Shown: piece after piece, positions 1 to 18,686 of the stretch | How the letters are laid out: each line of letters opens with the position of its first letter | How positions within the stretch are numbered: the first letter of the stretch is position 1 | Source of the DNA: Methylophaga frappieri | GTDB lineage: Bacteria > Pseudomonadota > Gammaproteobacteria > Nitrosococcales > Methylophagaceae | Reading direction: 5' to 3' | DNA: 32,000 nucleotides | NCBI RefSeq assembly: GCF_000260965.1 | Contig: NC_017856.1 | Location: 2,280,001 to 2,312,000, forward strand | Program-made: the position numbers and the translations under genes | Notes under the pieces: model-generated | What the model was told of the DNA's origin: nothing | Database searches by the model: none | The model's input: only the letters and a program-made list of their open reading frames with translations

Positions 1-177
1 CATGGTACGACCTTAATCATTATTTCTCATAAAAAAGGCATTTTGGGTCAGCTGGATAACCTGTTGATGATGCGTGATGGTTATCAAGTGGCTTATGGTT
101 CGAAAGAAGATGTGATGAAGCATATCCAGCAAAGTACGCAAGCAATCAAAAATACTGCAACAACGGCCCAATCATGA
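1..177 (+). CDS. Type I secretion system ABC transporter (ATPase/permease), C-terminal fragment; the gene starts upstream of the window
   Basis: Frame 1 is open from base 1 to TGA at 175-177. It translates to HGTTLIIISHKKGILGQLDNLLMMRDGYQVAYGSKEDVMKHIQQ..., typical of the region after the D-loop/H-loop (IISH) of PrtD/AprD-type exporters. The stop overlaps the ATG of the HlyD-family gene (ATGA). Confidence 0.7.
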   Translation, partial: HGTTLIIISHKKGILGQLDNLLMMRDGYQVAYGSKEDVMKHIQQSTQAIKNTATTAQS

Positions 178-1523
178 AAGATATAACTGAATTTAACAGC
201 GACGCGACGCGGGCTAAAGCGGAGCAGTCCCAATCGTCACTTTCTGTTTCAGACCGGCCTTACCGTTGGTTCGGTGTCTTGGTGTTGTTGCTGACATTTG
301 GGATTTTTGGCGGTTGGGCTTATACCGCCAAAATAGACAATGCGTCACTAGCGCCGGGCTTTGTCAGTGTTAAATACAATAGTAAATCAGTACAGCATTT
401 GGATGGTGGCATCGTGACAGAGCTGAACGTCCGTGAAGGTGATCTGGTCGAAGCGGGAGACGTGCTGATTGTATTGGATGATACACAAATTCGAGCTCAG
501 CGCGATATTACGATGGGACAACTATTGTCTTTGAGTGCTTTGGAGTCGCGTCTCATTGCAGAGCAAACCTGGCAGGAAAAAGTTGATTATCCCGAGTTGT
601 TGCAAGTCGCTGATGATCCGCGGGCGGCCGAAGCCATGATGGTTGAAAATGAAATTTTCAAGGCACGTCGAGAATCCATGACTGGTGAAGTCAAAGTGCT
701 GGAACAACGTATTCAACAATTACGTAATCGGCGCGTGGGTCTGGAAGCGCAACGTGACAGTAATGAAAGGCTGACCAAGTCCCTGACCGAGGAAATCGAT
801 GAGTTGCGTGATCTGCTCAAAGAAGGATTCGCTGAAAAACAACGTCTGCGCGAGCGCGAGCGTCAGTTTAATGAGGCGGAAGGATCTATTGGCGAATTGA
901 CTGCCGAGATTGCGGCCCTTGATGTTCAGATTGGTGAAACCCGACTGGAAATTCTGCAATTGCGTAAAGAACGCAGTGAAGAAGTTGCCACCCGGTTGGC
1001 AGAAGTTCAAAACAGTCTCTTTGATGTCCGTGAAAAACTGACTGCTCAGGAAGATGTATTGAGAAAAACCCAGATTCTAGCACCGGTCACAGGCAAAGTG
1101 CTGGGCTTGGCTGTCCATACAATTGGTGGGGTTATCGGGCCGAGAGAACGAATCATGGAAATTGTGCCTGAAGACGAAGAGTTAGCCATTATTGCTAGAG
1201 TGAATCCGATAGATATTGACCGTGTGTCGGTTGGTCAGTCAGCCGAAGTCCGGTTCAGCGCTTTCCACTTTGGTACGACACCACGCATGTTTGCAGAAGT
1301 GGTTAAAGTATCGCCAGATCGGATTCAAGATAGAGACAGTAAGGAGGTTTATTACGAAGCCCGTCTGGAAGTGACAACCGAGAGTTTGCTGGAGATGAAT
1401 AATTTGGTCGTTTTACCGGGTATGCCGGCCGAGGTGTTGATTTCATCCGGTGAGCGCACTCTCTTTGAATATCTGTCCAAACCGGTGACCGATGCCTTCT
1501 CCCGTGCTTTTTTAGAAGAATAG
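174..1523 (+). CDS. HlyD-family type I secretion membrane fusion (periplasmic adaptor) protein
   Basis: 449 aa. It has one N-terminal TM segment (WFGVLVLLLTFGIFGGWAY), a lipoyl-like VQHLDGGIV..L.V.EGD.V..GDVLI.LD motif, a long E/Q/R-rich coiled coil, and a C-terminal beta-barrel ending in LPGMPAEV. The ABC-MFP-OMP gene order matches PrtDEF/AprDEF/RsaDE. Confidence 0.9.
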   Translation: MKDITEFNSDATRAKAEQSQSSLSVSDRPYRWFGVLVLLLTFGIFGGWAYTAKIDNASLAPGFVSVKYNSKSVQHLDGGIVTELNVREGDLVEAGDVLIVLDDTQIRAQRDITMGQLLSLSALESRLIAEQTWQEKVDYPELLQVADDPRAAEAMMVENEIFKARRESMTGEVKVLEQRIQQLRNRRVGLEAQRDSNERLTKSLTEEIDELRDLLKEGFAEKQRLRERERQFNEAEGSIGELTAEIAALDVQIGETRLEILQLRKERSEEVATRLAEVQNSLFDVREKLTAQEDVLRKTQILAPVTGKVLGLAVHTIGGVIGPRERIMEIVPEDEELAIIARVNPIDIDRVSVGQSAEVRFSAFHFGTTPRMFAEVVKVSPDRIQDRDSKEVYYEARLEVTTESLLEMNNLVVLPGMPAEVLISSGERTLFEYLSKPVTDAFSRAFLEE

Positions 1524-1535
1524 CGAGCCTAGACT

Positions 1536-2843
1536 ATGTTGCGAAGACCGTCTTTTTTTCTAGTCATACTTCTTACAGTCAGTTTTTCAAAGCAGATATT
1601 GGCGCAGGATCTGGTCGCCATCTATCAACAGGTTGAACTGTCTGATCCTCGTTTGTTGATCGGCCATCAAAATTACCAGATCGGCGAAGCCCGACAGCGG
1701 CAAGCCTTAGGTGAGTTATTGCCACAGGCCAACTTTAGCAGCAGTCTGACCAGTACAGAGCGGGAGGTGGATGACCTCGACTCGTTCGAGCAATTTGGTG
1801 GTGAACGTTATGCCATCTCCGTGCGTCAACCGTTATTCAATATGGAGCGGTTTCGTTCATGGCAACGGGCCAAATCCGTTACCGAACAGTTTGGTTATAA
1901 ACGTGACGATACGGTAGCTAAGGTAAGGCTGGATACAATTGAACGTTATTTTCAATATCTAAAAGCCAAAGATGAATTAAACCTGATCACTGAAGACAAG
2001 GCTGATACCAAACTGAGACTCGAACAAACGCAGGCATTGTTTGATAAAAATCTGGTCCGCATAACCGAGTTACTGGAAGTCCAGTCGTCGTTGGATTTAC
2101 TGGAAGCACAGGAAATTAGCGCAGAACAAACGCTGGAAATGGCGCGCGAAAGTTTAATTGAAATTACTGGCCAGCCAGTCAGTTATGTGGCCCAGTTGCG
2201 GGAAGAGACGAACTTTGCCAGACCGGAAATGAGCGTTGATGAATTACTGGATCGGGCCATGCTGCACAACCCGGCGCTCAATGCATTAGGGTCGGAAATT
2301 GATGCCGCTAAAAAGAATATTCAAAGTAAACGTGCGCAGCATTTGCCAACGGTCAATCTGGAACTGAGCAAACAGGAAACCGACATTGGTTTTGATAACA
2401 CGCAGACACCGAAAAGCGACAGCGAAGTTATTTCATTGAGTATTAATGTGCCGATTTATTCTGGTGGTGTCACTTCAGCGCGTGTTGAAGAGTCTGCAAG
2501 ACAGCTAGTTGTCAGTCAGGCCACATTAGATCAGACACGTAGAGAGATTATCAAAGAACTCAAAGATATGTTTTTCGGCATGCGCTCGACCCTGAGACAG
2601 ATTGAAGCGACTGATAAAGCGATTACCTCGGCCAGTAAATCCCTGGAAGCCATGAATCGCGGCTTTGAACTCGGAATGAGCACAATTTCTGATGTTTTAG
2701 ATGCGCAAAAAGAGTTATTGAGCGCCAAACGCAGTCACCAGCAAGCACGATATGATTATGTCATTACTAGAGCCAGACTGGCTTTTCTCTCTGGTGGAAT
2801 GGATGAGCAGGTGATGGCTGAAATTAACAGCTGGTTAGACTGA
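1536..2843 (+). CDS. TolC-family type I secretion outer-membrane channel
   Basis: 435 aa with a signal peptide (LVILLTVSFSKQILAQDL). The N-terminal LVAIYQQVELSDPRLL motif and the two-fold repeated coiled-coil/OEP architecture are typical of TolC/PrtF/AprF. It sits directly after the MFP gene. Confidence 0.9.
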   Translation: MLRRPSFFLVILLTVSFSKQILAQDLVAIYQQVELSDPRLLIGHQNYQIGEARQRQALGELLPQANFSSSLTSTEREVDDLDSFEQFGGERYAISVRQPLFNMERFRSWQRAKSVTEQFGYKRDDTVAKVRLDTIERYFQYLKAKDELNLITEDKADTKLRLEQTQALFDKNLVRITELLEVQSSLDLLEAQEISAEQTLEMARESLIEITGQPVSYVAQLREETNFARPEMSVDELLDRAMLHNPALNALGSEIDAAKKNIQSKRAQHLPTVNLELSKQETDIGFDNTQTPKSDSEVISLSINVPIYSGGVTSARVEESARQLVVSQATLDQTRREIIKELKDMFFGMRSTLRQIEATDKAITSASKSLEAMNRGFELGMSTISDVLDAQKELLSAKRSHQQARYDYVITRARLAFLSGGMDEQVMAEINSWLD

Positions 2844-2846
2844 TCC

Positions 2847-3956
2847 TTGAACATACTTCATGTTTATAAATGTGCCTTGCCACTCAGTACCGGTGGCATT
2901 GAGCATGTGATCGAAGAGCTGTGTCAGCAGACCATCAAATTCGGTCACCGCAATACCATTGTTTGTCTGTCCGATAAGGTTGCCGACAAACAAACGATGG
3001 ATTTGCCCTACGGACAATTAATCGTATTTCCACAAAATGTCGAAATTGCTTCCTGTGGATTTTCCCTTTCGTTGCTGAAGGCATTTCGCCAACTGGCGCA
3101 ACAACATGATATTTTGCATTTTCAGTTTCCCTGGCCGTTTGCCGATGTATTGGCAATGCTGACGAATCGGCCTTATGTTGTCACCTATCAATCCGATATT
3201 GTTCGTCAGCGTGGCTGGTTGAAGCTGTACCGGCCATTGATGAAACGTTTTTTATCCCGCGCGGCAGCCGTGACGGCCAGTTCGCCTAACCTGCTTAAAA
3301 ATAGTCCGGTATTAAGCCAGTTAACCAAAACCCCCGTTGTCATTCCTAATGGCATTGGGGACGAAATACCCGCATTGGATACGGCCTTGGTAGCGCGTTT
3401 TTCGGCTCAGTTACCGGATAAATTTATCCTGTTTATTGGCGCTTTTCGCTATTACAAGGGCATTGATACCTTGATTGAGGCAGCCGCCAAAACAGCAGTA
3501 CATATTGTGATTTGTGGTGATGGACCGTTGCGTCAGACTTTCGAATCGCAAATTGAAGCGCAACAACTGGATAACGTAACATTATTGGGCTTTGTTGAAG
3601 AAGGCGAAAAAAATGCCTTGCTCAGTTTATGTACCGCGCTGGTTTTGCCTTCAGGTTACGCTTCGGAAGCGTATGGGATGGTATTGGTTGAAGCGGCCAG
3701 AATGGGGAAACCGTTAATTTCGACTGAGCTAGGCACGGGGACAACCTTTATTAATCAGGCCGATAAGACAGGGCTAGTCTTGCCACCCGGTGATGCTGAG
3801 AAATTGGCGTCAGCCATGACCTGGTTGAGTGAGCATCCCGAGCAGGCCACAGAAATGGGCCAAGCCAGTCGACAACGATTTGCTGATCACCTCACAGCAA
3901 GCCGCATGGGCGTGGCTTATGATGGCCTTTACCGCAGCATCATGGCGGCTGTCTGA
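2847..3956 (+). CDS. GT-B fold (GT4 family) glycosyltransferase, rhamnosyl/mannosyltransferase-like (WbpZ-like N-terminus)
   Basis: 369 aa with a TTG start 3 nt after the tolC-like stop. The N-terminal MNILHVYKC..STGGIEHVIEEL matches the M(K/R)ILHVYK..GGIE signature of this GT class. The C-terminal part carries the SEAYGMVLVEAARMGKPLIST (E-x7-E) region. Confidence 0.85.
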   Translation: MNILHVYKCALPLSTGGIEHVIEELCQQTIKFGHRNTIVCLSDKVADKQTMDLPYGQLIVFPQNVEIASCGFSLSLLKAFRQLAQQHDILHFQFPWPFADVLAMLTNRPYVVTYQSDIVRQRGWLKLYRPLMKRFLSRAAAVTASSPNLLKNSPVLSQLTKTPVVIPNGIGDEIPALDTALVARFSAQLPDKFILFIGAFRYYKGIDTLIEAAAKTAVHIVICGDGPLRQTFESQIEAQQLDNVTLLGFVEEGEKNALLSLCTALVLPSGYASEAYGMVLVEAARMGKPLISTELGTGTTFINQADKTGLVLPPGDAEKLASAMTWLSEHPEQATEMGQASRQRFADHLTASRMGVAYDGLYRSIMAAV

Positions 3957-5038
3957 CCGATGTCACAGCGGCCTGCCCAGACAACAACAAAGGAACCGAC
4001 ATTGAAAACGGCGATAATTACCGGGATAACGGGCCAGGACGGCGCTTACCTTGCAGACCTGCTACTTGGCAAAGGTTACCGCGTGATAGGCACCTACCGT
4101 CGCAGCAGCTCCGTCAACTTCTGGCGTCTGGACATGCTGGGCGTTCGCCACCACCCGGATCTGCAACTTCGCGAATTTGACCTGACCGACCTCAGCAACT
4201 GCATTCGGCTGTTATCAGACAGCCAACCAGACGAAGTCTACAACCTGGCAGCACAAAGCTTTGTTGGCGTCTCCTTTGAACAACCGTTGACCACTGCCGA
4301 CATCAGCGGTATTGGTGTCTTAAACCTGCTGGAAGCCATTCGCATCGTTGACAAAGGGATCCGCTTTTATCAAGCCAGCACCTCCGAACTGTACGGCAAA
4401 GTCCAACAAATCCCCCAAACCGAAGACACCCCTTTTTACCCGCGCAGCCCCTATGCTGTTGCCAAACTGTTCGGTCACTGGAGCGTTGTCAACTACCGCG
4501 AATCCTACGACCTGTTTGCCAGCAGTGGCATCCTGTTCAACCACGAATCCCCATTACGCGGCAAAGAATTCGTCACCCGCAAAATCACCGACCGGGTTGC
4601 CCGCCTGGCCGATGGCGACCCGGCACCGTTACGGCTTGGCAACATGGACGCCAAACGAGACTGGGGCTATGCCAAAGAATACGTTGACGGCATGTGGCGC
4701 ATGCTGCAACACGAGCGTGCTGACACCTTCGTACTGGCGACTAATGAAACCCACTCCGTGCGTGACTTTGTCAGCTGGGCATTTGCCGCTGTTGACAAAC
4801 ACATTGACTGGCAGGGCAGTGGTGACACCGAACAAGGCCGAGACAGTCAAACGGGTCAATTACTGGTTGAAGTAGACCCGGCATTTTACCGTCCTGCGGA
4901 AGTCGAACTGCTGATAGGCGACTATCGCAAGGCAAAAGAGGCACTGGGCTGGTCGCCGCAGACCGACGTTGCGCAGTTATGCAAGATGATGGTTGACAGT
5001 GATCGGCAGAAGATTGCCAATGGGGTGTCGTTTTGACG
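3886..5038 (+). repeat. Direct repeat copy A (~1153 bp): last ~71 nt of the GT gene plus the whole of gmd
   Basis: Aligns without indels to 11138-12290 at a constant offset of 7252 bp. By eye I found about a dozen substitutions, clustered near the 5' end, and only one amino-acid change in Gmd (D32E). Confidence 0.9.
3960..5036 (+). CDS. gmd: GDP-mannose 4,6-dehydratase (copy 1)
   Basis: 358 aa. Contains [13 protein letters not shown] (Rossmann GxxGxxG), [34 protein letters not shown] (YxxxK), [20 protein letters not shown] and [14 protein letters not shown] motifs, colinear with bacterial Gmd (e.g. the P. aeruginosa type). Confidence 0.95.
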
Positions 5039-5107
5039 ATCAGATCGGTGAGACAAGCAGACCTGTTGGTAGATCAGGTGACACCTTAAGGCGAGGAAAT
5101 CAGGCTT

Positions 5108-5893
5108 ATGCTGCGTTCAATCTGGCATTATCGCGGGTTCATTTTTTCCTCGATTCGACACGAGTTCAGACTCCGTTTTGTGCGCAGTAAACTGGGCGGG
5201 CTATGGATTATTATCAGTCCCTTGGCGCAGATCGCTATTTATGCCATCGTCTTATCCAGCGTGTTGTCTGCCAAATTGCAAGGCGTCGAAAATACGCATG
5301 CCTATGCTATTTATCTGATTACCGGCATTTTTGCCTGGAGTTTTTTCTCGGAAATCATGAGCCGGTGTCTGACGGTCTATCTCGATAATGCCAATCTGAT
5401 TAAAAAAATCCGCTTTCCAAAGAGTGCGCTGCCCATCATTATCCTCGGCGGCAGCCTGATGAATAGTCTATTTTTATTCATGGCTGTAGTCGTTATTTAC
5501 ATGATCATGGGGCATTATCCAGATATACATTATTGGGCGCTCATCCCGGTCACGCTGGTGATGATGCTGTTTGCCATGGGCGTGGGGCTGATTTTAGGGG
5601 TGTTAAATGTGTTTATCCGCGATATCAGTCAGATCTTCCCGATACTGCTGCAATTAGGCTTCTGGTTAACACCGATTATTTATCCGATTAATATCTTGCC
5701 CGAGTCAGTGCAGTATTTGGTGCAATTTAATCCGTTATTTCATCTGATGGACAGCTATCATCAAATCATGGTGTATCAGGCGTATCCCGATTGGCAATCA
5801 CTGGGCGTGATGCTGCTCATCAGCTTGGGCTTATTAGCGCTTGCAATGACCTTGGTGCGGCGATCCGGCCCGCAAATGGTTGACGTGTTATGA
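5108..5893 (+). CDS. wzm: ABC-2 type polysaccharide/O-antigen export permease (Wzm-like)
   Basis: 261 aa and about 6 TM segments. The N-terminal LWHYRGFIFSSIRHEFRLRFVRSKLGGLWIIISPL motif is typical of Wzm/KpsM/TagG permeases. It overlaps the downstream ATPase gene (ATGA). Confidence 0.85.
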   Translation: MLRSIWHYRGFIFSSIRHEFRLRFVRSKLGGLWIIISPLAQIAIYAIVLSSVLSAKLQGVENTHAYAIYLITGIFAWSFFSEIMSRCLTVYLDNANLIKKIRFPKSALPIIILGGSLMNSLFLFMAVVVIYMIMGHYPDIHYWALIPVTLVMMLFAMGVGLILGVLNVFIRDISQIFPILLQLGFWLTPIIYPINILPESVQYLVQFNPLFHLMDSYHQIMVYQAYPDWQSLGVMLLISLGLLALAMTLVRRSGPQMVDVL

Positions 5894-7119
5894 CCTTATT
5901 ATCGGTCAAAAATCTGAGTAAAACCTATGTGCAATATCGATCTGAGTTGCATCGTATCGCCAGTTGGTTCGGTTGGCGCAATGCGCCGGTAACCACGATA
6001 CCGGTATTGCAGGACATCAGTTTTGATATCAGCCAAGGGGAATCGGTAGGCATTATTGGTCAGAATGGTGCCGGTAAATCCACTTTGCTCAAGCTGATTG
6101 TTGGCACTTTGCAAAAAACATCGGGTGATATCAACCAGTATGGGCGTATCTCTGCGATTCTGGAATTGGGCATGGGCTTTAATCCGGATTTGACTGGCAG
6201 GCAAAACGTACGTCATGCGGCAGGTTTGATGGGGTTTCATCCCAATGAAATTGAGACCATGCTGCCCGACATCGAAGACTTCGCTGAAATTGGTGACAAA
6301 TTTGATGCTCCGGTGCGGACGTATTCTACTGGTATGCAAATGCGGGTGGCGTTTGCGGTAGCCACGGCAGTGCGGCCAGATTTGCTGATAATTGATGAAG
6401 CTTTATCAGTGGGTGATAGCTATTTTCAGCATAAAAGCTTCGATCGCATCAAAGACTTTACCCGGCGTGGCACTTCTCTGTTAATTGTTTCGCATGACAT
6501 TAACGCTGTTTTATCCTTATGTAATCGCGCAATTTTATTGGATAACGGCAAGCTGCTGCGCGATGGTGAGCCGGAAATGATTATGGATTATTACAATGCC
6601 ATTATCGCTAAAAAAGAACGCAGCAAATTACAGGTGACACAAGTTGCCGATGGCCGGCAGCAGATCATTTCCGGGACGGGAGAAGTCCGGATCGAAAAAG
6701 TCCGACTCTGTGGAGAGGATGGCGCTGATATCAGCAATGTGCCCATTGGCGAACAGGTCACGTTGGAAGTCGCGACTTATGTCGAACAAGCGGTTGATGA
6801 GCTGGTGGTGGGCTACATGATCAAAGACCGACTGGGTCAGCAGGTCTTTGGTACGAATACCCACTATCTCAAAGCGACGTTGCATGATTTGAAGCCGGGC
6901 GACACACCGATTATTCGATTTACGTTTGAGGCCAATATGGGCGCTGGTAGTTATGCCGTCACTGTCGCCTTGCATAGCAGTGAAAATCATCTCAATGATA
7001 ATTATGAGTGGCGTGATATGGCGCTGGTTTTTTCTGTCATTAGCCTGCAAAAACTGACTTTTTTTGGTTATAACTGGCTACCACCGACGGTGACGACCAC
7101 TACCGATAAATCAGCGTAA
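5890..7119 (+). CDS. wzt: Polysaccharide export ABC ATPase (Wzt-like) with a C-terminal glycan-binding-type extension
   Basis: 409 aa. Contains Walker A GQNGAGKST, signature YSTGMQMR, Walker B LLIIDEALSVGD and H-loop VSHD. The ~160-aa C-terminal beta-rich extension (GTGEVRIEKVRL...GSYAVTVALHS) resembles the Wzt_C carbohydrate-binding module. Confidence 0.9.
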   Translation: MTLLSVKNLSKTYVQYRSELHRIASWFGWRNAPVTTIPVLQDISFDISQGESVGIIGQNGAGKSTLLKLIVGTLQKTSGDINQYGRISAILELGMGFNPDLTGRQNVRHAAGLMGFHPNEIETMLPDIEDFAEIGDKFDAPVRTYSTGMQMRVAFAVATAVRPDLLIIDEALSVGDSYFQHKSFDRIKDFTRRGTSLLIVSHDINAVLSLCNRAILLDNGKLLRDGEPEMIMDYYNAIIAKKERSKLQVTQVADGRQQIISGTGEVRIEKVRLCGEDGADISNVPIGEQVTLEVATYVEQAVDELVVGYMIKDRLGQQVFGTNTHYLKATLHDLKPGDTPIIRFTFEANMGAGSYAVTVALHSSENHLNDNYEWRDMALVFSVISLQKLTFFGYNWLPPTVTTTTDKSA

Positions 7120-7171
7120 ATCATGTCTTGCAACGTGATGAACGATCAGTAAAAGGGTTGGGTTTACCACC

Positions 7172-8347
7172 ATGCATATTTTGTTACTGACTACTTATCC
7201 GGTCGCAGTGCCTCGACATGGCGGGCAGATTCGGGCAGCAGAAATTGCCCGCTTTTATCGTCAGCAAGGGCATTCAGTGCAAGTCGCGGGTGTGCTTGGT
7301 TCGGCAACCTATGCATCGGCACCCGGCTTTGTGCCTTTCCCGGATGAAAAACAATTGAATCAATGGGCGGATCCGCTGTTTCTGATGGAAGATGTCGCCA
7401 TCGGTGAACACTTTTTGAAAAATGATGATGCCTTTGCCGCCCTCAGTCGTGTCATTCAACCCGTTCCTGATGTTATTCATGTCGAACAACCGTGGCTAAT
7501 GGGCTTTGCTCAGCGGTTTATTCAACAAACGCACGCTAGTGCTCCGTTGATTTACGGTTCGCAAAATATTGAAGCGCCATTGAAGGCGGCCATTGTCAAA
7601 ACCTACTATGGTCAGCAGATCGCGGAAAATCAGGCACAGCAAGTCAGGGCGATGGAAAATGCGGCCATTGAAATGGCGGATTCGGTGAGCTGTGTTTCGG
7701 AAGAAGATGCGCTGTACACGCGGCAACGCACGTCAAAACCGGTTGTGGTTGCACCCAATGGGGTCACAGAATGCCATGCCGATAAAGCTGCCTTTGCCGC
7801 TGCGGCCAAGATGAGCCAGGGTCGGCAATATGCGTTGTATTGTGCCAGTGCGCATCCACCGAATATTCACGGTTTTTTTGACTGGTTAGGTGGCAGTAAC
7901 GGTGCGTTAGATCACGACCAGCGTATTATCGTCGCAGGCTCTGCCGGGCAAGCCATTCAGGATGATGACCGTTTTCATCAATCGCCGGGGTTACCAGCAG
8001 TCTTTATTCAGGCCGGATTGGTTGATGACAGCACGTTAGCAGGATTAATTGCTGGCGCACATGCCATGATTCTGCCAATTAGCGCCGGTGGCGGCACTAA
8101 TTTAAAAACAGCCGAAGCCCTTTACAGTGGACAACATGTGTTGGCATCGCCAAAAGCCATGCGCGGATTTGAGCCTTTTGAAAACGATGCCGGTGTGGTC
8201 ATTGCGGAATCCGCCGGTCAATTCAAGCGACAACTTCGCCACATGATGGCACAACCACCCTTGCAGCTTGATGCAACAGCACGTCAATCACGTCAGTCAT
8301 TACGCTGGTCACACTGTTTGCAACCCTTGGGAGATCTGATTTCATGA
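7172..8347 (+). CDS. Putative GT-B fold glycosyltransferase (divergent GT4-like)
   Basis: 391 aa. The N-terminal MHILLLTTYP..PRHGGQIR and the C-terminal ILPISAGGGTNLKTAEAL motifs resemble group-1 glycosyltransferases. It is translationally coupled (ATGA) to the next GT gene. Confidence 0.6.
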   Translation: MHILLLTTYPVAVPRHGGQIRAAEIARFYRQQGHSVQVAGVLGSATYASAPGFVPFPDEKQLNQWADPLFLMEDVAIGEHFLKNDDAFAALSRVIQPVPDVIHVEQPWLMGFAQRFIQQTHASAPLIYGSQNIEAPLKAAIVKTYYGQQIAENQAQQVRAMENAAIEMADSVSCVSEEDALYTRQRTSKPVVVAPNGVTECHADKAAFAAAAKMSQGRQYALYCASAHPPNIHGFFDWLGGSNGALDHDQRIIVAGSAGQAIQDDDRFHQSPGLPAVFIQAGLVDDSTLAGLIAGAHAMILPISAGGGTNLKTAEALYSGQHVLASPKAMRGFEPFENDAGVVIAESAGQFKRQLRHMMAQPPLQLDATARQSRQSLRWSHCLQPLGDLIS

Positions 8348-10086
8348 GTCAACCCGTTATCTGGGTCAACATTACCACCAGCTATCACTGGCAACGTGCC
8401 GCGGTTGGTATTGTGCGCGTTGAATCAGAATTGGCTAGTCACTTACCGTCTGTGTTTTCGGATGCGAAAGTGAAATATTGCATTTGGGACAATGATCGTT
8501 TTGTCGAAGTTACCCAGCGCAAACATCCGCAAAAACAGGCAAAACCGGTCACACCAACAGCGGCACCACAAGCGTATCGAAGTCCGCTTAGTAAACGCGA
8601 TGCTCTAAAGCATATTGCCGCTGGTTTTCTCGCGCTGCTACCGGGACGTTGGCAACCCTTTGTTCGTCGAAGCTTAATTCGGATGAATCAGTTGCGACAC
8701 CGGGTAATACAACGTTGGCAGCAGTGGCGTGCCATGAAAGCCAAACCGGCCCCAACGCGACCGGCTAAAGCCAAGACAGACCCAAAGCCGACCTCTACGA
8801 TCTTTGCGCCAGGAGAGGTGCTGATTACCGTCGGACTGGACTGGAATTACCCGTATCGCCCGGAACTGCGCAAACTGAAAGCACAACAAGGCCTGCGTAT
8901 CGTCAGTTGTTGTTATGACCTGATACCAGTCTATTATCCGCAATACTGTGTCGGTGATGTCGCTTCTGTCTTCAGCGAATATTTTCTGGATATGGCGCGG
9001 CTGTCGGATTTAATCATGTGTATTTCCGAGCAGACTCGGCAGGATTTGCGCAGTCACTTGCTGGATGCCGGCGCACCGTTGCCGCCGGCAGAGGTGTTTC
9101 GACTCGGTGATGACAGTGTTGCCGAAACCGTCGACAAGCCGCTTGATGACGAGATAGCGACCATCATGGCAGCGCCCTATATCCTGTTTGTCTCTACCAT
9201 CGAACGACGCAAAAATCATCAAGTGTTGTATCTGGCTTATCATTTGCTGGCGAAAGCCGGTCATATTAATGACATACCACAAATGGTCTGGGTGGGGATG
9301 CCCGGCTGGGGCACGTCAGAGTTACTGGAAGATGTGCGTTTGGATCCGCTGCTGAAAGGCAAAATCACGTTATGTCATCATGTCAGTGATGCCGCTTTGG
9401 CGGCACTTTATCAGCAGGCGACATTGACGGTATTCCCGTCTTATTACGAGGGCTGGGGATTGCCGGTCGCAGAGTCATTGGCGCATGGCACACCAGTAAT
9501 CAGTTCCGATCGTGGCTCACTGCCCGAAGTCGGCGGTGATTGGGTGCAATATTGTGACCCGATGACGCCACAGGCTTGGGCGAATGCGATTTTACATTGG
9601 TCGCGTAATCCTGCTGCTTTGCAGGACTGGCGCGACCAACTGCGTGCCGCGTATCGGCCACAACCCTGGTCGGCGGCAATCACCGAAATTGCAACGTCGA
9701 TTCAAGCCATATTGGCGCAACCTGCTATCAGTCATACTGGCTACGCGGGTTACGACATGACTTGCTTGGCAGGTTATCAGGCGGGTTCAACGATTATCAG
9801 TGAACAACCTGCCAATCCGCTTTGTCGCAGTCGGGCTTATCGCCTTGCCCCCGGCGGGTATCAACTGACGATTTGGGCCGATGCCACTACGCAACAAAAT
9901 TTGAGTGTGCGCTTAATTAGCGATGATTTGGTGTTGCTTGAAGAAAATTTGCCATGGGATAAGGAAACCAGCGAACAATCATGTCGCTTTCAAGTTGACT
10001 CAACCGCTATGGTGCAATTACTGATTGGCCATGATGGACCGGCGTTAACCTGCCGACAGTTTCGCTTTGAACCGGTGACAGACTGA
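8344..10086 (+). CDS. Glycosyltransferase family 1 (GT4) protein with a K/P/A-rich linker and an extra ~110-aa C-terminal domain
   Basis: 580 aa. Contains FVSTIERRKNH, FPSYYEGWGLPVAESLAHGTPVISSDRGSLPEVGG (E-x7-E). This pattern is typical of WbdA/WbpX-type mannosyl/rhamnosyltransferases in ABC-dependent O-antigen clusters. Confidence 0.8.
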   Translation: MSQPVIWVNITTSYHWQRAAVGIVRVESELASHLPSVFSDAKVKYCIWDNDRFVEVTQRKHPQKQAKPVTPTAAPQAYRSPLSKRDALKHIAAGFLALLPGRWQPFVRRSLIRMNQLRHRVIQRWQQWRAMKAKPAPTRPAKAKTDPKPTSTIFAPGEVLITVGLDWNYPYRPELRKLKAQQGLRIVSCCYDLIPVYYPQYCVGDVASVFSEYFLDMARLSDLIMCISEQTRQDLRSHLLDAGAPLPPAEVFRLGDDSVAETVDKPLDDEIATIMAAPYILFVSTIERRKNHQVLYLAYHLLAKAGHINDIPQMVWVGMPGWGTSELLEDVRLDPLLKGKITLCHHVSDAALAALYQQATLTVFPSYYEGWGLPVAESLAHGTPVISSDRGSLPEVGGDWVQYCDPMTPQAWANAILHWSRNPAALQDWRDQLRAAYRPQPWSAAITEIATSIQAILAQPAISHTGYAGYDMTCLAGYQAGSTIISEQPANPLCRSRAYRLAPGGYQLTIWADATTQQNLSVRLISDDLVLLEENLPWDKETSEQSCRFQVDSTAMVQLLIGHDGPALTCRQFRFEPVTD

Positions 10087-11060
10087 TGGGCTATTTGCGC
10101 CTGTTTCTGGCCTGGCTGGTGTTATTGTCACATATCAACTGGCGGGTGGATGGTCTGAATCCCGGCGTATTTGCTGTGGTCATTTTTTATCTGCTGGCCG
10201 GCTCTGTGGTGACGCACCTTTGGCATGATGTGATGACGCCCGGCCCCGGTAAATTGCGCCGCTTTTATCAGGATCGGTTTTTACGCATTTATCCCATGTA
10301 TGCCTATGCCATGTTACTGACTTTGCTGTTTTTGCTTTATACGGGGTTCGGTCAGCCACAATACCAGCCACTGGCCTTGTTCAATAACCTGATTATGATT
10401 CCACTGAACTATTACATGGTGATCGATAGCACCGTTATGACTAATCCGGCCTGGAATCTGGTGCCACCGGCATGGTCTTTGGCTGTTGAGGTGCAGGTGT
10501 ATCTGTTATTGCCATTTTTACTGTTGCGCCCGGCGTGGGCAGGGCTGGCCTTCGTCGCCAGCCTGATAGTCTATATGCTGGCGAATCTGAGCCTGATTCA
10601 GCCGGACTATTTTGGTTATCGGTTATTACCCGGGGTGTTATTTATTTTCCTATTAGGTTCTATCTTGCAGCGGGCGCAGCAGCAACCTCGCTGGTATGGC
10701 TTTTTAGCGTTTTTTTGGCTGGCGATGGTGCTGACCTACGTTGGTTTTGCCTGGACACAGCAATTTCCAGAAGCCTATACCCGTGAGACCTTATTAGGCG
10801 TCATCATTGGCTTACCTTTGATCGCGGTACTGAATCACTGGCGGCCTAGACTGCCCGGCAATGGTTTTGCCGGACAGCTGTCCTATGGGGTATTTGTGCT
10901 GCATTTTCTAGTGATTTGGGGGCTGGCGCACTGGCAGGGTCATCACTTTAATAGCTGGCAATATGCTTTAGTGGTCACGGCATTGACCGTTTTATTGGCG
11001 CTTCCCGGTGTACTTCTCCTTGAAAAACGCATCAACCGGTGGCGATTTGCGCATAACTGA
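10086..11060 (+). CDS. Acyltransferase family 3 (polysaccharide O-acyl/acetyltransferase) integral membrane protein
   Basis: 324 aa and polytopic. Contains YLRLFLAWLVLLSH and PAWSLAVEVQVYLLLPFLL motifs characteristic of the OafA/WecH/NolL-type acyltransferase_3 family. It has an ATGA overlap with the upstream GT gene. Confidence 0.8.
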   Translation: MGYLRLFLAWLVLLSHINWRVDGLNPGVFAVVIFYLLAGSVVTHLWHDVMTPGPGKLRRFYQDRFLRIYPMYAYAMLLTLLFLLYTGFGQPQYQPLALFNNLIMIPLNYYMVIDSTVMTNPAWNLVPPAWSLAVEVQVYLLLPFLLLRPAWAGLAFVASLIVYMLANLSLIQPDYFGYRLLPGVLFIFLLGSILQRAQQQPRWYGFLAFFWLAMVLTYVGFAWTQQFPEAYTRETLLGVIIGLPLIAVLNHWRPRLPGNGFAGQLSYGVFVLHFLVIWGLAHWQGHHFNSWQYALVVTALTVLLALPGVLLLEKRINRWRFAHN

Positions 11061-11137
11061 ACCTGTTTATTATCAGCAGGACATGACAAAATACGCCGCA
11101 ACATAGCAGGCAAACAGATCAATCCACGTTTCTGCGC

Positions 11138-11208
11138 ATCATCTCACAGCAAGCCGCATGGGTATGGCTTATGATGGCCTTTACCGCAGCATCATGGCGG
11201 CTGTCTGA
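11138..11208 (+). pseudogene. Orphan 3' fragment (last ~23 codons plus stop) of the 2847-3956 glycosyltransferase gene, carried along with gmd copy 2
   Basis: Translates to ...HLTASRMGMAYDGLYRSIMAAV*, against DHLTASRMGVAYDGLYRSIMAAV* at the end of the intact GT. No upstream GT coding sequence precedes it. Confidence 0.75.
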
Positions 11209-11211
11209 CCG

Positions 11212-12288
11212 ATGTCACAGCGGCCTGCCCAGACAACAACAAAGGAACCGACATTGAAAACGGCGATAATTACCGGGATAACGGGCCAGGACGGCGCCTA
11301 CCTTGCAGAGCTGCTACTTGGCAAAGGTTACCGCGTGATAGGCACCTACCGTCGCAGCAGCTCCGTCAACTTCTGGCGTCTCGATATGCTTGGCGTTCGC
11401 CACCACCCGGATCTGCAACTTCGCGAATTTGACCTGACCGACCTCAGCAACTGCATTCGGCTGTTATCAGACAGCCAACCAGACGAAGTCTACAACCTGG
11501 CAGCACAAAGCTTTGTTGGCGTCTCCTTTGAACAACCGTTGACCACTGCCGACATCAGCGGTATTGGTGTCTTAAACCTGCTGGAAGCCATTCGCATCGT
11601 TGACAAAGGGATCCGCTTTTATCAAGCCAGCACCTCCGAACTGTACGGCAAAGTCCAACAAATCCCCCAAACCGAAGACACCCCTTTTTACCCGCGCAGC
11701 CCCTATGCTGTTGCCAAACTGTTCGGTCACTGGAGCGTTGTCAACTACCGCGAATCCTACGACCTGTTTGCCAGCAGTGGCATCCTGTTCAACCACGAAT
11801 CCCCATTACGCGGCAAAGAATTCGTCACCCGCAAAATCACCGACCGGGTTGCCCGCCTGGCCGATGGCGACCCGGCACCGTTACGGCTGGGCAACATGGA
11901 CGCCAAACGAGACTGGGGCTATGCCAAAGAATACGTTGACGGCATGTGGCGCATGCTGCAACACGAGCGTGCTGACACCTTCGTACTGGCGACTAATGAA
12001 ACCCACTCCGTGCGTGACTTTGTCAGCTGGGCATTTGCCGCTGTTGACAAACACATTGACTGGCAGGGCAGTGGTGACACCGAACAAGGCCGAGACAGTC
12101 AAACGGGTCAATTACTGGTTGAAGTAGACCCGGCATTTTACCGTCCTGCGGAAGTCGAACTGCTGATAGGCGACTATCGCAAGGCAAAAGAGGCGCTGGG
12201 CTGGTCGCCGCAGACCGACGTTGCGCAGTTATGCAAAATGATGGTTGACAGTGATCGGCAGAAAATTGCCAATGGGGTGTCGTTTTGA
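11212..12288 (+). CDS. gmd: GDP-mannose 4,6-dehydratase (copy 2)
   Basis: 358 aa, identical to copy 1 except D32E. The stop overlaps the TTG start of the downstream reductase gene (TTGA). Confidence 0.95.
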
Positions 12289-13130
12289 CGGAAACCGTCT
12301 GGATTACGGGTGGCAACAGCTTCACCGCAGGCCATTTATCGCCTGCATTAAAACAAGCGGGCTATCAGGTTAATCAGACAGCGATTGATATTACCGATGC
12401 TGCGGCTTGTGACACCTTTATTAAGCGCGAGCGACCGGACTATATTATTCATCTGGCGGCGATTTCATTTGTCCCGGCCGGGCAGGATGCCGAAATTTAT
12501 GCCGTTAATACACTCGGCACGGAAAATGTGCTGAAAGCAGCCACTATTGCGCCGCCTAAAAAAATCATTTTGCCCAGTACCTCGCATATCTATGGGCGTC
12601 AGTCGTTGCCGGTCATTGATGAAGCCGTCGCACCGGCACCGGTCAGTCATTATGGTTGCAGCAAACTGGCGATGGAATATCTGGCCGCCAATTACCAGCC
12701 CAGCCTACCGATTCAAATCGTGCGGCCGTTTAACTACACTGGCCGCGGTCAGGCAGCGCAGTTTTTAATACCCAAACTGGTCAGTCACTTTGCCCGCCGT
12801 GCTACCACCATCCAACTTGGTAATATTGATGTCTGGCGTGATATTTCCGATGTGCGTTGGGTGGTTCAGGCTTATCTTGGCTTACTGACAGCGTCGCCAC
12901 AGGGGCCATTAAACCTGTGCCGTGGTGAAGCGATCAGTATTCGCGAGATGCTGACAATGCTTGAGCAACTGACCGGCCATCAAATTAAGATTGAACAGGA
13001 TCCGGCGTTAATGCGTCGCGATGAGTTACCCAGACAATGCGGCAGCCAAATACAACTCCGCGCAGCATTGCCACTGCTGCCGGAGCCGCTGCCCATCACC
13101 GAAACGCTTGCCTGGATGCTCGCTGTCTGA
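12285..13130 (+). CDS. rmd: NAD(P)-dependent SDR, probable GDP-4-dehydro-6-deoxy-D-mannose reductase (Rmd-like; makes GDP-D-rhamnose)
   Basis: 281 aa. Contains [13 protein letters not shown] (Rossmann), [16 protein letters not shown] (YxxxK), [10 protein letters not shown] and [12 protein letters not shown], colinear with P. aeruginosa Rmd (..VQDPARMRRAE..). It is translationally coupled to gmd. An alternative 4-reductase or epimerase specificity cannot be excluded. Confidence 0.7.
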
Positions 13131-14556: not shown

Positions 14557-14744
14557 CAGGAGCAGTGACTCGCCGAGGCGGTCACCAAATGCGATGCGCC
14601 ATGGTAGTAACGCAGTTGTTGGACGCTTTCACGAAGGTGTTGACATCAGATACATACCTCGTGCATGTTATCACTCGCTGATATATTCACGCACCCGACT
14701 CCTATGGTGGAGTCAACAAGAAACTTTTTAATCAGGAGATTGAA

Positions 14745-17700
14745 ATGGCCTTAACTCAAACTCAAGTATCTGAGCTTTACGTCGCGATTTTTAATCGTGC
14801 ATCGGAAGGCGAAGGTAATGCCTTTTGGCAGACCTTTTCTGCCACAGATGATGTGTCAGAAGTTGCCAACATCATGCTGGGCACCACCGCTGCGCAAGAC
14901 TACTTTGGCAGTGCATTAGATAATGACCAGGATTTTGTTGAGTGGATTTACCAAAACACATTCAATAAAACCATTGCTGACGATCCAGACGGTATCGCTT
15001 TCTGGGTTCAAGAATTAGCGGATAATGGCGGCGACCGTGGTGCGGTTGTCGAAGCGATTATTTTCGCGGCTAAGCAACCTGAAAATGCCGGTCCTGCACA
15101 AGACCAGTTTTTAAACCGGGTTGCTGTGTCTAACTACGCAGCACAAAATCTGGATGAAGCACCTGCTGATCTGGGCTCACTGCGTTTTGATGACGAGCTG
15201 ATGGTATCAGACGACGATGCCACCGTAACTGCGGCACAAGATTCAATTGATGATCTGGCTGATGAAGAGCCTGTTGATCCAGGTGTGCCGGGTGATGAAT
15301 TCCTGCTGACGTCAGGTACCGATCGTTTTACTGGTACAGCCAATAACGACTTCTTTGATGCGCCAATCATGCAAAACCCATTTGCGGGTGGTGTATCTAA
15401 CTCACTGTCAACGGCTGACCGTTTAGACGGTGGTGCGGGTACCGACACGTTGTATGCTGAGTTGGTTTCTGAATTTGTTGGTACCGACACCAGCACTATC
15501 ACCGATGTTCAACCACGTACAACCAGCATTGAAATCGCTGAATTTGAAGCGTTGGATATGTCTGGCGAAGGTGAAAATACCGTTGTTGTTGATGCGTCTA
15601 AAATGCTGGGCGTTCAAAAAATCGGTTCTGCCTACTCAGACGGTGACTTGGTTATCGAAAACCTGACGACACTGGCTAACGATGGTTCGACCATCCGCAA
15701 CACGTCAGAAATGACCATCACCATGGATCACACTGACAACTTTAACTCTGATGAAGATGCATCAGACCTGACAGTTTTCTTTGATGAAGATTATCTGGTA
15801 ACAGGTCAGCAAACCTCAGGTGCGCAGTTATTGGTACGTTTGGTTAACGCGGTAGAAAACGAAGCCGGCCGTAACTCAGTTGAAAAATTCAACAACATCG
15901 AGTTTGCCGTTGGTGAAACAGTGGTAACCGTTGATATCTCAGCGATTGCTGCTGATGACACACTGGATTACACCACTGTTTACCAAGCGATCGTTGATGC
16001 GATTAATGCCCAGCTGGATGCCGACGGTTTCTCTGACGTATCTGCTGCCTTGGCGCCGGTTGAAAATGCGGTATTCTCAATCCCGGTTGCTGGCTTCCAA
16101 GCAGGCGACCCTGCAGGTCCTTACTTCCCGATCATCATTTCAAATGACGGTCCAGAGCCATTGACTGGCGTATCGATTGATACAGCAGAAGATGCCAGCG
16201 ACACTGACTTGAACAACTCGTTCTCGACATTTGATCCAACCACTGAGATCACACCGATTTCGGTTGATGTTGAGCTGCACAAAGTCGGTCAGGACGGTGA
16301 CGGTGGTAACCTAATCATTGGTGGTAAAGATCAAGACTCTATTGATGATGATGTTGACCAAAACGACGGTATTGAAGTATTCAATATCGAAGTATTGGGT
16401 AACGAAGATCGTCCATCGAACCTGGGTTACATCACATCAACCAATGGTGCGCTGCGTACCGTTAACATTGATTCAGAAACCCGTACAGATGATTCTTACG
16501 CGGCGCTGACTGTGCGTGGTTTATTGTCAAATGAACTGCAAGGTCAAAGTGCGTCTGCACCATTTGGCGGTACACTGACGAACCTGAATGCCAACACCTT
16601 CTTTGGTGATTTGTACATCGGTACCGTTTTTGCGGCACAGAACATTGATACGTTCAGCGCAACGGGTGGCGGCGATGTGTTCTACAACGCAGAGAAAGAT
16701 GATAACGGCGTATACACTTCAACCGTGACTGGTGCGGGTAGCGATACCATCATCTATGACATTGACGGTGACTCAGTCGATACCATTGGTGAAGGCTTTA
16801 TGGTCTCTACCGGTGCGAACGGTGATTCAATCGAAGTCACACTGGATAGCGGCGTATCCCAATCCACCATGTATCTGCTGGATAATCTGGATATCAGCAC
16901 CGGCAGTGGTGATGATTATGTCTTCGTCGGTGGTATTGCCAACGTTGATGTGATGGCGGGCAGCGGCAGTGATTTCGTTGAAATCGATACTGCGGGTGTA
17001 AGCGGTGTAACAGGTGGCAGCACAGGCACGTGGGAATTTGGTGATATCACTGGCCCACAAACCTTCGGTGATGCCTTCGGTCTGCAAGGTGGCGGTCGTG
17101 TCTTGTATCAAGCGCAACTGACGGCCATGTTTGCCGGCTTTGAAAGCACCGTTACTGTTGAAACCACTGCGGCCAACAACTATGTTGCCACGCAAATCGA
17201 TATCAACAATGCGATTGCTGATGCGATTGACAGTAACCCGGAACTGGCGCGTTTGCTTGAAGAAACGCTGGGCACCGGTCTGCAAACTATCAATGTTGCT
17301 TCGCTGGTAGAAGGTCTGAATGACTTTGCCATCAGCTTGTATCAGCCAACATTGGTCGATGCCGGTGCAGGTTCTGGTGCTAACGGTACAGCAGGTCCAG
17401 GTGAATTGACGGTGACTAACACTACTGTCTTGAATGATCTGGCTGAAGGTCTGATTGCAACGCAGCAAGAACCAAACTCTTCGTTGATGAGCGATGCCGA
17501 TGGTATCCGTACTCAATTTAACGAAGATGCCGGTTCACTGCTGCAAGACGGTTCAGTCGGTACCGGTGGTATCGCTGGTCTGGGTACCATTGCTTATGAT
17601 GGTGGCGAGATTGGTCGCGGTCTGTATGAGTATGAAGCGCCAAATGGCGGTGGCAGCGGTAATGGTGGCGACATCAACTACTCTGAAATTGACATGGGTA

Positions 17701-18540: not shown

Positions 18541-18686
18541 TGCTTGTATTTTGGTGATATTCGCCAATCACGCACATCCTATGATAGGGTTTAAAACAAT
18601 CGGTTTTACAAGGCCGTCGACTTGACTGCTGCACAGAAATGACGCGCAGTTAAGTGTCAGCTCACCCTATCTAACAGGAGTACAGA

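Follow-up and report, generated by a model that had tools for sequence, protein, structure and literature searches.

Duplicated gmd genes bracket a predicted O-polysaccharide export module in Methylophaga frappieri: a candidate gain/loss polymorphism

The removal of part of a surface-polysaccharide locus by recombination between direct repeats is well known in principle. In Brucella, RecA-type recombination between flanking copies of the insertion sequence (IS) ISBm1 excises a 5.5-kb wbkA segment and gives rise spontaneously to rough, O-antigen-negative variants (Mancilla et al. 2012, reviewed in PMC4700419). The present work concerns a 32,000-nt stretch of the Methylophaga frappieri genome (contig NC_017856.1, positions 2,280,001 to 2,312,000; called the window, and numbered from its first base) in which the gene gmd occurs twice as a direct repeat. 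The two copies bracket a block of ~6 kb with the gene order wzm-wzt-GT-GT-acyltransferase, where GT denotes a glycosyltransferase gene. It is proposed that this block, an export module like that of the Pseudomonas common polysaccharide antigen (CPA), is subject to a recombination-mediated gain/loss polymorphism, and a probability of about 60% is given to this reading. What the locus adds to the known principle is its anatomy and a candidate natural variant.

The Brucella excision is the closest analogue in mechanism, and the Pseudomonas CPA locus is the closest in content. Both the Brucella locus and the present one place a multi-kb segment of a gmd-based, ABC-transporter-dependent O-polysaccharide locus between direct repeats. 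The Brucella repeats are IS copies and one glycosyltransferase is lost, whereas here the repeats are two working gmd copies, wzm and wzt lie inside the segment, removal would be scarless, and excision is predicted from sequence. In P. syringae, a 'TET operon' (wzm-wzt-methyltransferase-GT) located beside gmd-rmd-wbpZ is exchanged between strains by recombination (PMC7820976; PMC3560663). The CPA/TET loci share with the present one gmd, rmd, wzm, wzt with a Wzt_C domain, GT4 transferases and a methyltransferase. As with TET, the transport/elongation module appears as a unit whose history is separate from that of the adjacent conserved sugar-synthesis genes. However, P. syringae has a single gmd and its alleles are replaced by double crossover, whereas here the module appears to have been added and gmd is present on both sides. 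The present locus further differs in gene order, in having an O-acyltransferase in the module, and in its fusion to a type I secretion operon.

Two further systems are related by layout. For the cap locus of Haemophilus influenzae type b, Kroll, Hopkins and Moxon in 1988 reportedly described a duplication-mediated, irreversible loss of capsule at appreciable frequency. There too, long direct repeats are said to lie in a surface-polysaccharide locus and their recombination to remove or disable ABC export. The repeat in that case is said to comprise all 18 kb of the cap locus, between IS1016 copies, and the loss to act through a pre-existing bexA deletion, whereas here it is a 1.15-kb gene. Campbell-type merodiploids arise by single-crossover integration of circular homologous DNA and are resolved by a second crossover. 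The A-R-B-R-C layout of the present locus (R being the repeat and B the bracketed block) is that of a Campbell merodiploid, and the reciprocal mosaic of its alleles relative to a putative empty site, contig L001, would fit one. Unlike in the textbook case, no vector, plasmid or phage backbone was found in the inserted segment, and the circular intermediate would have been a circularised chromosomal fragment. A literature search for a duplicated gmd in such a context found nothing relevant.

Two gmd copies around an export module

The direct repeats were delimited by a repeat search and base-by-base comparison (copies A and B; Table 1). Each is 1,153 nt long. They keep the fixed offset of 7,252 nt that the first-pass annotation had reported, with no gaps, and differ by 12 mismatches (98.96% identity), in agreement with the roughly a dozen substitutions claimed there. 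Beyond both repeat edges similarity drops to a random, background level. Each copy comprises the last 71 nt of the gene for the upstream GT4 glycosyltransferase (GT_a), a short spacer and a complete gmd. Copy B therefore starts with an orphan GT tail, found from 11138 onward as the counterpart of 3886-3956, and the rest of the GT gene is absent there. The left edge is uncertain by ~5 nt, with partial matches from 3881. At the right edge, the gmd stop codon occupies 5034-5036 and the final matching base is 5038, so that identity ends 2 nt past the stop, within the 2-3 nt noted earlier. In copy B, the last 6 matching bases double as the TTG start codon and the second codon of rmd. Repeat A carries these two codons (TTGACG) as well, and they open there a 19-codon remnant ORF (open reading frame) before wzm (5033-5092). 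The true start of gmd is probably the TTG at 4002 or, in copy B, at 11254, because homologues have 344 aa and start with MKTAIITG, as do the database versions of both copies.

The duplication is not an artefact of a single assembly, because an independent contig reproduces both ends of repeat B. This Logan contig (L089; 1,531 nt) is 100% identical to window positions 10946-12476. It runs from the acyltransferase gene through repeat B into rmd and has the B allele at all 12 sites. An assembly artefact was considered as the source of the duplication and is ruled out by the 12 substitutions together with the match of L089 at the B junctions. It follows that the repeat is not a trivial assembly copy, as had been claimed. 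The support from L089 is for the repeat B junctions; the gmdA-wzm junction is known from the one assembly.

The way in which the copies differ bears on their origin. In copy A coordinates, three mismatches lie in the GT tail (3890, 3911 and 3912) and nine in gmd (4046, 4058, 4130, 4133, 4139, 4637, 4943, 4985 and 5012). All nine gmd differences are at third codon positions, eight being synonymous and one exchanging D for E. Divergence is 0.034 per synonymous site (dS) and 0.0013 per nonsynonymous site (dN), with a dN/dS of 0.037 and a binomial P of 6e-5 for the synonymous excess. Because of this pattern, both gmd versions must have diverged as functional genes, which is what alleles of two strains would be expected to do. 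The orphan GT tail, too, looks as though it diverged while part of a working gene: two of its differences are synonymous in the GT frame and one is V/M, so that 10 of the 12 differences in the whole repeat are synonymous and the other two conservative. The differences are also clustered, one stretch of 498 nt being free of any (simulation P ~0.01-0.03), a pattern consistent with a mosaic history or with partial gene conversion. GC content and GC at third codon positions of the module overlap those of the flanks and give no foreign-DNA signature; the lack of compositional contrast fits a closely related donor. Taken together, these features make a closely related strain the most likely source of the second gmd copy, as opposed to decay in place.

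Both gmd copies are intact (TIGR01472 equivalog, 465.8 bits against a cut-off of 415; Pfam GDP_Man_Dehyd, E 9e-137), and so are all module genes between the repeats. Several stop and start codons in the module overlap, as do the wzm stop and the wzt start. The best named homologues of Wzt are Pseudomonas proteins with ~60% identity. Homologues of the acyltransferase are named OafA/YrhL-type O-acetylases (best, 71% identity), and its adjacency to GT_c recurs in contig L095. The GTs belong to GT4 families, whose sequences do not reveal sugar specificity; GT_a shares 41-47% identity with the GT that adjoins gmd-rmd in many loci. Rmd is the reductase that yields GDP-D-rhamnose. The rmd-like protein of the window has no NCBIfam equivalog match and occupies the position directly after gmd that is seen in rmd loci. 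In the Protein Data Bank (PDB) it matches the solved RMDs 6x3b (E 6e-30) and 2pk3 (E 2e-21), its best match being a 'putative epimerase', 4lw8. By its gene content, the segment between the repeats resembles those parts of a CPA-like (Pseudomonas D-rhamnan) pathway that serve export, elongation and decoration. The whole would be an ABC-transporter-dependent O-polysaccharide cluster of the predicted D-rhamnan type, joined to a type I secretion operon.

A one-gmd contig and the origin of the segment

Evidence for a form of the locus with one gmd comes from L001, a metagenome contig of 1,789 nt from JGI sample 3300049839, retrieved by exact-protein look-up of gmdB. It aligns over its first 1,306 nt with window 3733-5038 and over its last 1,636 nt with 11138-12773, giving the order GT tail-gmd-rmd with a single gmd. 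At the three mismatch sites of the GT tail (3890, 3911 and 3912) L001 has the A alleles, and at the remaining nine the B alleles. A simulated recombinant between the repeats contains the contig exactly (1789/1789 bases), but only with a crossover between 3912 and 4045. The simulated product keeps intact reading frames for GT (369 aa), gmd, rmd (281 aa) and the methyltransferase (330 aa). The earlier claim that a loop-out would leave an intact GT-gmd-rmd operon is thus supported both by the simulation and by L001. A second contig of the same sample (L094) covers window 2369-3698 with 99.85% identity and ends 34 nt before L001 begins; neither of its two mismatches is more than 20 nt from a contig end. 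Since both contigs match the window, a near-identical strain is present in the sample at low coverage. Exact-protein look-ups of gmdA, wzm, the acyltransferase and rmd found nothing. L001 may be read as an ancestral empty site, as a deletion derivative or as a chimeric join.

Comparison with other bacteria indicates which order is ancestral. The first-pass annotation had proposed a comparison of one-gmd and two-gmd versions in relatives, and such a comparison was made by tblastn of the window proteins against ~90 fetched loci, all from distant relatives. In ~55 related loci gmd is directly followed by rmd, and none of the ~90 has two gmd copies. Because relatives carry one gmd and then rmd directly, the 7.25-kb segment appears to have been added to a GT-gmd-rmd operon that is ancestral. 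Closest in synteny are four Tara Oceans contigs (L090-L093; ABC-HlyD-OEP-GT-GT-gmd-rmd-GT and further genes, gmd 75% identical) and a Methylomarinum metagenome-assembled genome (L002; RTX protease-ABC-HlyD-OEP-GT_a-GT-gmd-rmd-wzm-wzt-GT). Distant gammaproteobacterial contigs (L002, L090-L093, L009-L011 and L027) likewise have a type I secretion operon (ABC-HlyD-OEP) linked to a gmd-rmd/GT4 cluster. The Tara contigs have no wzm/wzt within 16 kb, which raises the question of how D-rhamnose is used there. The order wzm-wzt-GT_b-GT_c-gmd-rmd recurs in L034 and L052, and a native gmd-wzm adjacency is present in L011 (HlyD-OEP-gmd-wzm-wzt-methyltransferase).

The junctions of the segment can be interpreted against these orders. 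At the GT/gmdA junction the GT gene is complete, which gives this junction a native look. The same holds for gmdB/rmd, where stop and start overlap and the adjacency is universal. The right end of the repeat is the point at which gmd-wzm and gmd-rmd types of locus cease to be homologous. The sole clearly illegitimate joint is 11137|11138, where sequence downstream of the acyltransferase gene meets the orphan GT tail with a possible microhomology of ~4 nt (ATCA). A single such joint suffices, because the native order gmd-wzm exists elsewhere (L011).

These observations suggest a model in which the ancestral order was type I secretion genes-GT-gmd-rmd-methyltransferase. The 7,252-nt segment, consisting of a gmd copy and wzm-wzt-GT-GT-acyltransferase, would have been added by homologous recombination within the GT-tail/gmd homology. 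Most simply, a fragment of a conspecific donor, in which a gmd with ~1% divergence natively preceded wzm, would have circularised and entered by one Campbell-type crossover. The outcome would be what is seen: a pair of functional gmd genes, in direct repeats of 1,153 nt, on either side of an export/elongation/acylation module. If L001 is the empty site, copy A would consist of recipient sequence on the left and donor sequence on the right, and copy B of donor sequence on the left and recipient sequence on the right, which is the arrangement found. A Campbell-type origin had been suggested in the first-pass annotation. The A-R-B-R-C anatomy on which it was based is real, and the substitution pattern fits a donor with ~1% divergence; that pattern is no proof of the origin. 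The direction of the event (insertion or deletion) and the circular intermediate are both inferred.

RecA-type recombination between the repeats could remove the module again without a scar. Direct repeats of ~1 kb with 99% identity that lie a few kb apart are efficient RecA substrates, and for this reason the two-gmd form should shed the 7,252-nt segment at a measurable rate. Since the repeats permit scarless removal, the population should be polymorphic, with module-plus and GT-gmd-rmd-only forms. The predicted 7,252-nt circle contains one hybrid gmd, wzm, wzt, two GT genes and the acyltransferase gene only. As an excised circle without replication or integration function, it would be lost effectively one-way within a clone, barring re-acquired DNA. 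The term 'on/off switch' used in the first-pass annotation is thus an overstatement, and gain/loss polymorphism is the wording that the evidence supports. Left with one gmd, the locus would still provide GDP-D-rhamnose synthesis, one GT and the methyltransferase, and wzm/wzt would be gone. O-polysaccharide export may then be lost, with a possible effect on the neighbouring secreted proteins.

Several points weigh against the gain/loss reading. L001 is short and comes from a low-coverage assembly. Its allele pattern hardly discriminates, because the outer sites are linked to the unique flanks and must carry A alleles on the left and B alleles on the right whatever the origin of the contig; the match of L001 with copy A left of 3912 and with copy B right of 4046 is equally expected for a deletion product. 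Neither a circle junction (acyltransferase-R-wzm) nor a second independent one-gmd contig was found. The species of the window is absent from the genome collection that was scanned and, among the matches listed, nearly absent from metagenomes. The comparison therefore rests on distant relatives, with gmd 65-76% and GT at most 47% identical. A scan of genome contigs with GT gave no match closer than 47% identity, and a metagenome scan with gmd gave at most 71% identity among the matches listed, which is useful for synteny and not for comparing strains. A donor with the order GT-gmd-wzm-...-acyltransferase was not observed among the loci compared. Finally, the phenotype of a one-gmd form hinges on whether the 2.7-Mb genome has a second wzm/wzt pair outside the window. 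As to whether the JGI sample that yielded L001 also holds the module, the protein clusters of its five genes contain the window's own proteins only; this absence means little, because the rmd fragment known from L001 is likewise missing from its cluster.

A further point is that L001 might be a low-coverage chimera of copy-A and copy-B reads, joined within the identical stretch of 133 nt at 3913-4045. Such a chimera is less likely than not, though to be reckoned with. It is also part of the strongest competing explanation, itself unlikely, in which the duplication is fixed and stable (perhaps because of gene dosage, or because gmd is thereby coupled in translation to wzm as well as to rmd) and no natural one-gmd form exists. 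L001 and L094 are contigs of 1.3-1.8 kb separated by a 34-nt gap, which implies very low coverage, and the switch of L001 from A to B falls exactly where reads of the two copies are indistinguishable. The two mismatches of L094 are so close to its ends that the sample may hold the very strain of the window, and both gmd copies are under purifying selection. However, a chimera requires coverage gaps at the acyltransferase-repeat and repeat-wzm joints as well as loss of the copy-A alleles at six internal sites, a coincidence to be expected only on rare occasions, whereas a true one-gmd genome yields L001 directly. Repeats of 1.15 kb with 99% identity are known recombination substrates as a matter of general knowledge, so that full stability would be unusual, and no relative shows the duplication.

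It is improbable that the duplication arose in place, by tandem or dispersed duplication in one lineage (replication slippage or unequal sister-chromatid exchange) followed by deletions, with the 12 differences accruing afterwards on that one chromosome. Such an origin agrees with the lack of mobile-element features, with the equal composition inside and outside the module, and with the frequency of wzm-wzt-GT_b-GT_c-gmd-rmd in other bacteria (L034 and L052), which means that part of the B-side order could be old. Yet at least three precise events would be needed to leave both outer junctions native-looking, and the closest syntenic relatives are GT-gmd-rmd. A dS of 3.4% with no indel and with synonymous or conservative changes even in the orphan tail also fits poorly, since 99% identical repeats 7 kb apart should be homogenised or deleted.

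Searches for mobile elements and regulatory sequences bear on the last alternative. No integrase, transposase, recombinase, invertase or IS was found among the window ORFs of at least 90 aa, and tRNA genes, att-like short repeats and inverted repeats were absent from all 32 kb, which extends to tRNA the earlier remark that no IS, integrase or att-like feature was seen. Likewise, the window contains no ops element or Rfam family, the predicted circle has no invertase or repeat tract, plasmid relatives were limited to distant wzt similarity, and promoter and terminator searches at the junctions gave nothing above chance. The integrase or recombinase, att repeats and tRNA target that a site-specific excisable island requires are thus missing from the window, and none of the mechanisms by which a reversible phase switch could be restored to ON (inversion, a slipped-strand tract or a re-integration function) is present in the segment. 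A programmed phase switch or excisable island that controls O-polysaccharide, and hence S-layer attachment, is accordingly highly improbable: the geometry permits excision and type I secretion genes, large repetitive secreted proteins and a SapC-family gene are nearby, but the circle lacks replication and integration genes and would re-insert by chance homologous recombination, and no S-layer family, solved or curated, is matched by the large proteins.

Features of the window and the surface-protein genes

Table 1. Features of the 32,000-nt window (positions from its first base)
Feature	Position	Strand	Evidence and remarks
Type I secretion genes	1-2843	+	ABC ATPase C-terminal end 1-173 (translation); HlyD adaptor 174-1523; TolC/OEP 1536-2843 (Pfam HlyD_3, OEP)
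GT_a, GT4 glycosyltransferase, 369 aa	2847-3956	+	Pfam Glycos_transf_1 / Glyco_transf_4
Repeat A (copy A): GT_a tail, spacer, gmdA	3886-5038	+	gmdA ORF 3960-5036; likely start TTG 4002, 344 aa
Spacer, repeat A to wzm, 69 nt, unique sequence	5039-5107	+	No promoter or terminator match
wzm, ABC-2 permease	5108-5893	+	Pfam ABC2_membrane
wzt, ATPase with Wzt_C carbohydrate-binding domain	5890-7119	+	Pfam ABC_tran + Wzt_C (E 3e-38)
GT_b, GT4-type glycosyltransferase, 391 aa	7172-8347	+	Pfam GT4 families
GT_c, GT4-type glycosyltransferase, 580 aa	8344-10086	+	Pfam GT4 families
Acyl_transf_3 family O-acyltransferase, 324 aa	10086-11060	+	Pfam
Spacer, 77 nt, unique	11061-11137	+	Ends at joint with orphan GT tail (read directly)
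Repeat B (copy B): orphan 71-nt GT_a tail, spacer, gmdB	11138-12290	+	gmdB ORF 11212-12288, likely start 11254; L089 100% identical
rmd-like GDP-4-keto-6-deoxy-D-mannose reductase, short-chain reductase type, 281 aa	12285-13130	+	Start overlaps gmdB stop
S-adenosylmethionine (SAM) methyltransferase, 330 aa	13213-14205	+	Pfam methyltransferase families
Large secreted-type protein, 1,235 aa	14745-18452		DUF4214 match, weak RTX motif
TPR + GT41 (O-GlcNAc-transferase-like) protein	22445-24391		
YceI, then 2OG-Fe(II) oxygenase	within 22445-29766		
SapC-family protein	26478-27305		
Further GT4	27368-28522		
Trypsin-like protease with Calx-beta domain	28558-29766		

The methyltransferase downstream of rmd is 37-43% identical to genes that directly follow wzt in L011, L060, L062, L070 and L087. 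By this homology it is probably the chain-terminating partner of the Wzt_C domain, though separated from wzt here. Since its homologues normally adjoin wzt and the gene nevertheless lies outside the removable segment, there is a hint that the ancestral locus also used Wzm/Wzt.

Further downstream lie a gene for a large secreted-type protein and a second, frameshifted copy of it, which likewise shows only DUF4214 and a weak RTX motif. Neither large protein has a PDB relative, a Pfam match beyond DUF4214 or a match among known S-layer proteins. A secreted surface protein is plausible, because the large proteins adjoin the type I secretion genes and a SapC-family gene. Caulobacter RsaA and Campylobacter fetus SapA are anchoring analogues, and anchoring of the large proteins to the polysaccharide is suggested only by this analogy.

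The tandem large-protein genes (14744-18452 and 18686-22287) contain a second and fresher direct repeat. Over the 5' 2.47 kb (14763-17228 against a copy 3,942/3,943 nt downstream) the two genes are identical except for one substitution (16247) and an extra C, and their 3' parts are only ~70% identical beyond a sharp boundary at ~17229. A conserved N-terminal and a variable C-terminal half are also features of the sapA families of Campylobacter fetus, and recombination here would yield a chimeric gene. The inserted C (CCC at 20059-20061 against CC at 16117-16118) splits the second copy into ORFs at 18687-20090 (467 aa) and 19873-22287 (804 aa), making it an apparent frameshift pseudogene or the product of a sequencing error.

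The gene run at 22445-29766 suggests modification of secreted proteins. It is followed by an ORF of at least 693 aa (29922-32000) that runs off the end of the window. This ORF contains an array of ten copies of a 24-nt tandem repeat (30459-30698; consensus ACGCCAGAACCAACTCCTGAGCCG) that encodes a Thr/Pro/Glu-rich linker.

Meaning for the cell surface

The region is intrinsically unstable, and repeat collapse or chimeric joins are to be expected when it is assembled from short reads. Its anatomy shows how an export module can be added to a sugar-nucleotide operon, and cleanly removed from it, by homologous recombination alone, at the price of one extra copy of a pathway gene.

One may go further and regard the duplicated gmd as a built-in homology handle that makes the O-polysaccharide export/elongation module a mobile cassette without mobile-element genes. 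The 7.25-kb circle with its own gmd could, after uptake, re-enter any conspecific GT-gmd-rmd operon by a single crossover. The pair of surface-protein genes, with its near-identical 2.47-kb 5' repeat and divergent 3' halves, has the same layout, which suggests that the whole locus may diversify by additive single-crossover integration. This extension is quite doubtful. If it were true, strains could swap or shed a surface glycan and leave unbroken the GDP-D-rhamnose operon and, through it, the attachment of the type-I-secreted surface proteins encoded alongside.

Should the one-gmd form prove real, members of a natural population differ in whether they carry this O-polysaccharide module. Sensitivity to phages and tailocins would then be affected, and retention of the adjacent type-I-secreted surface proteins might change.

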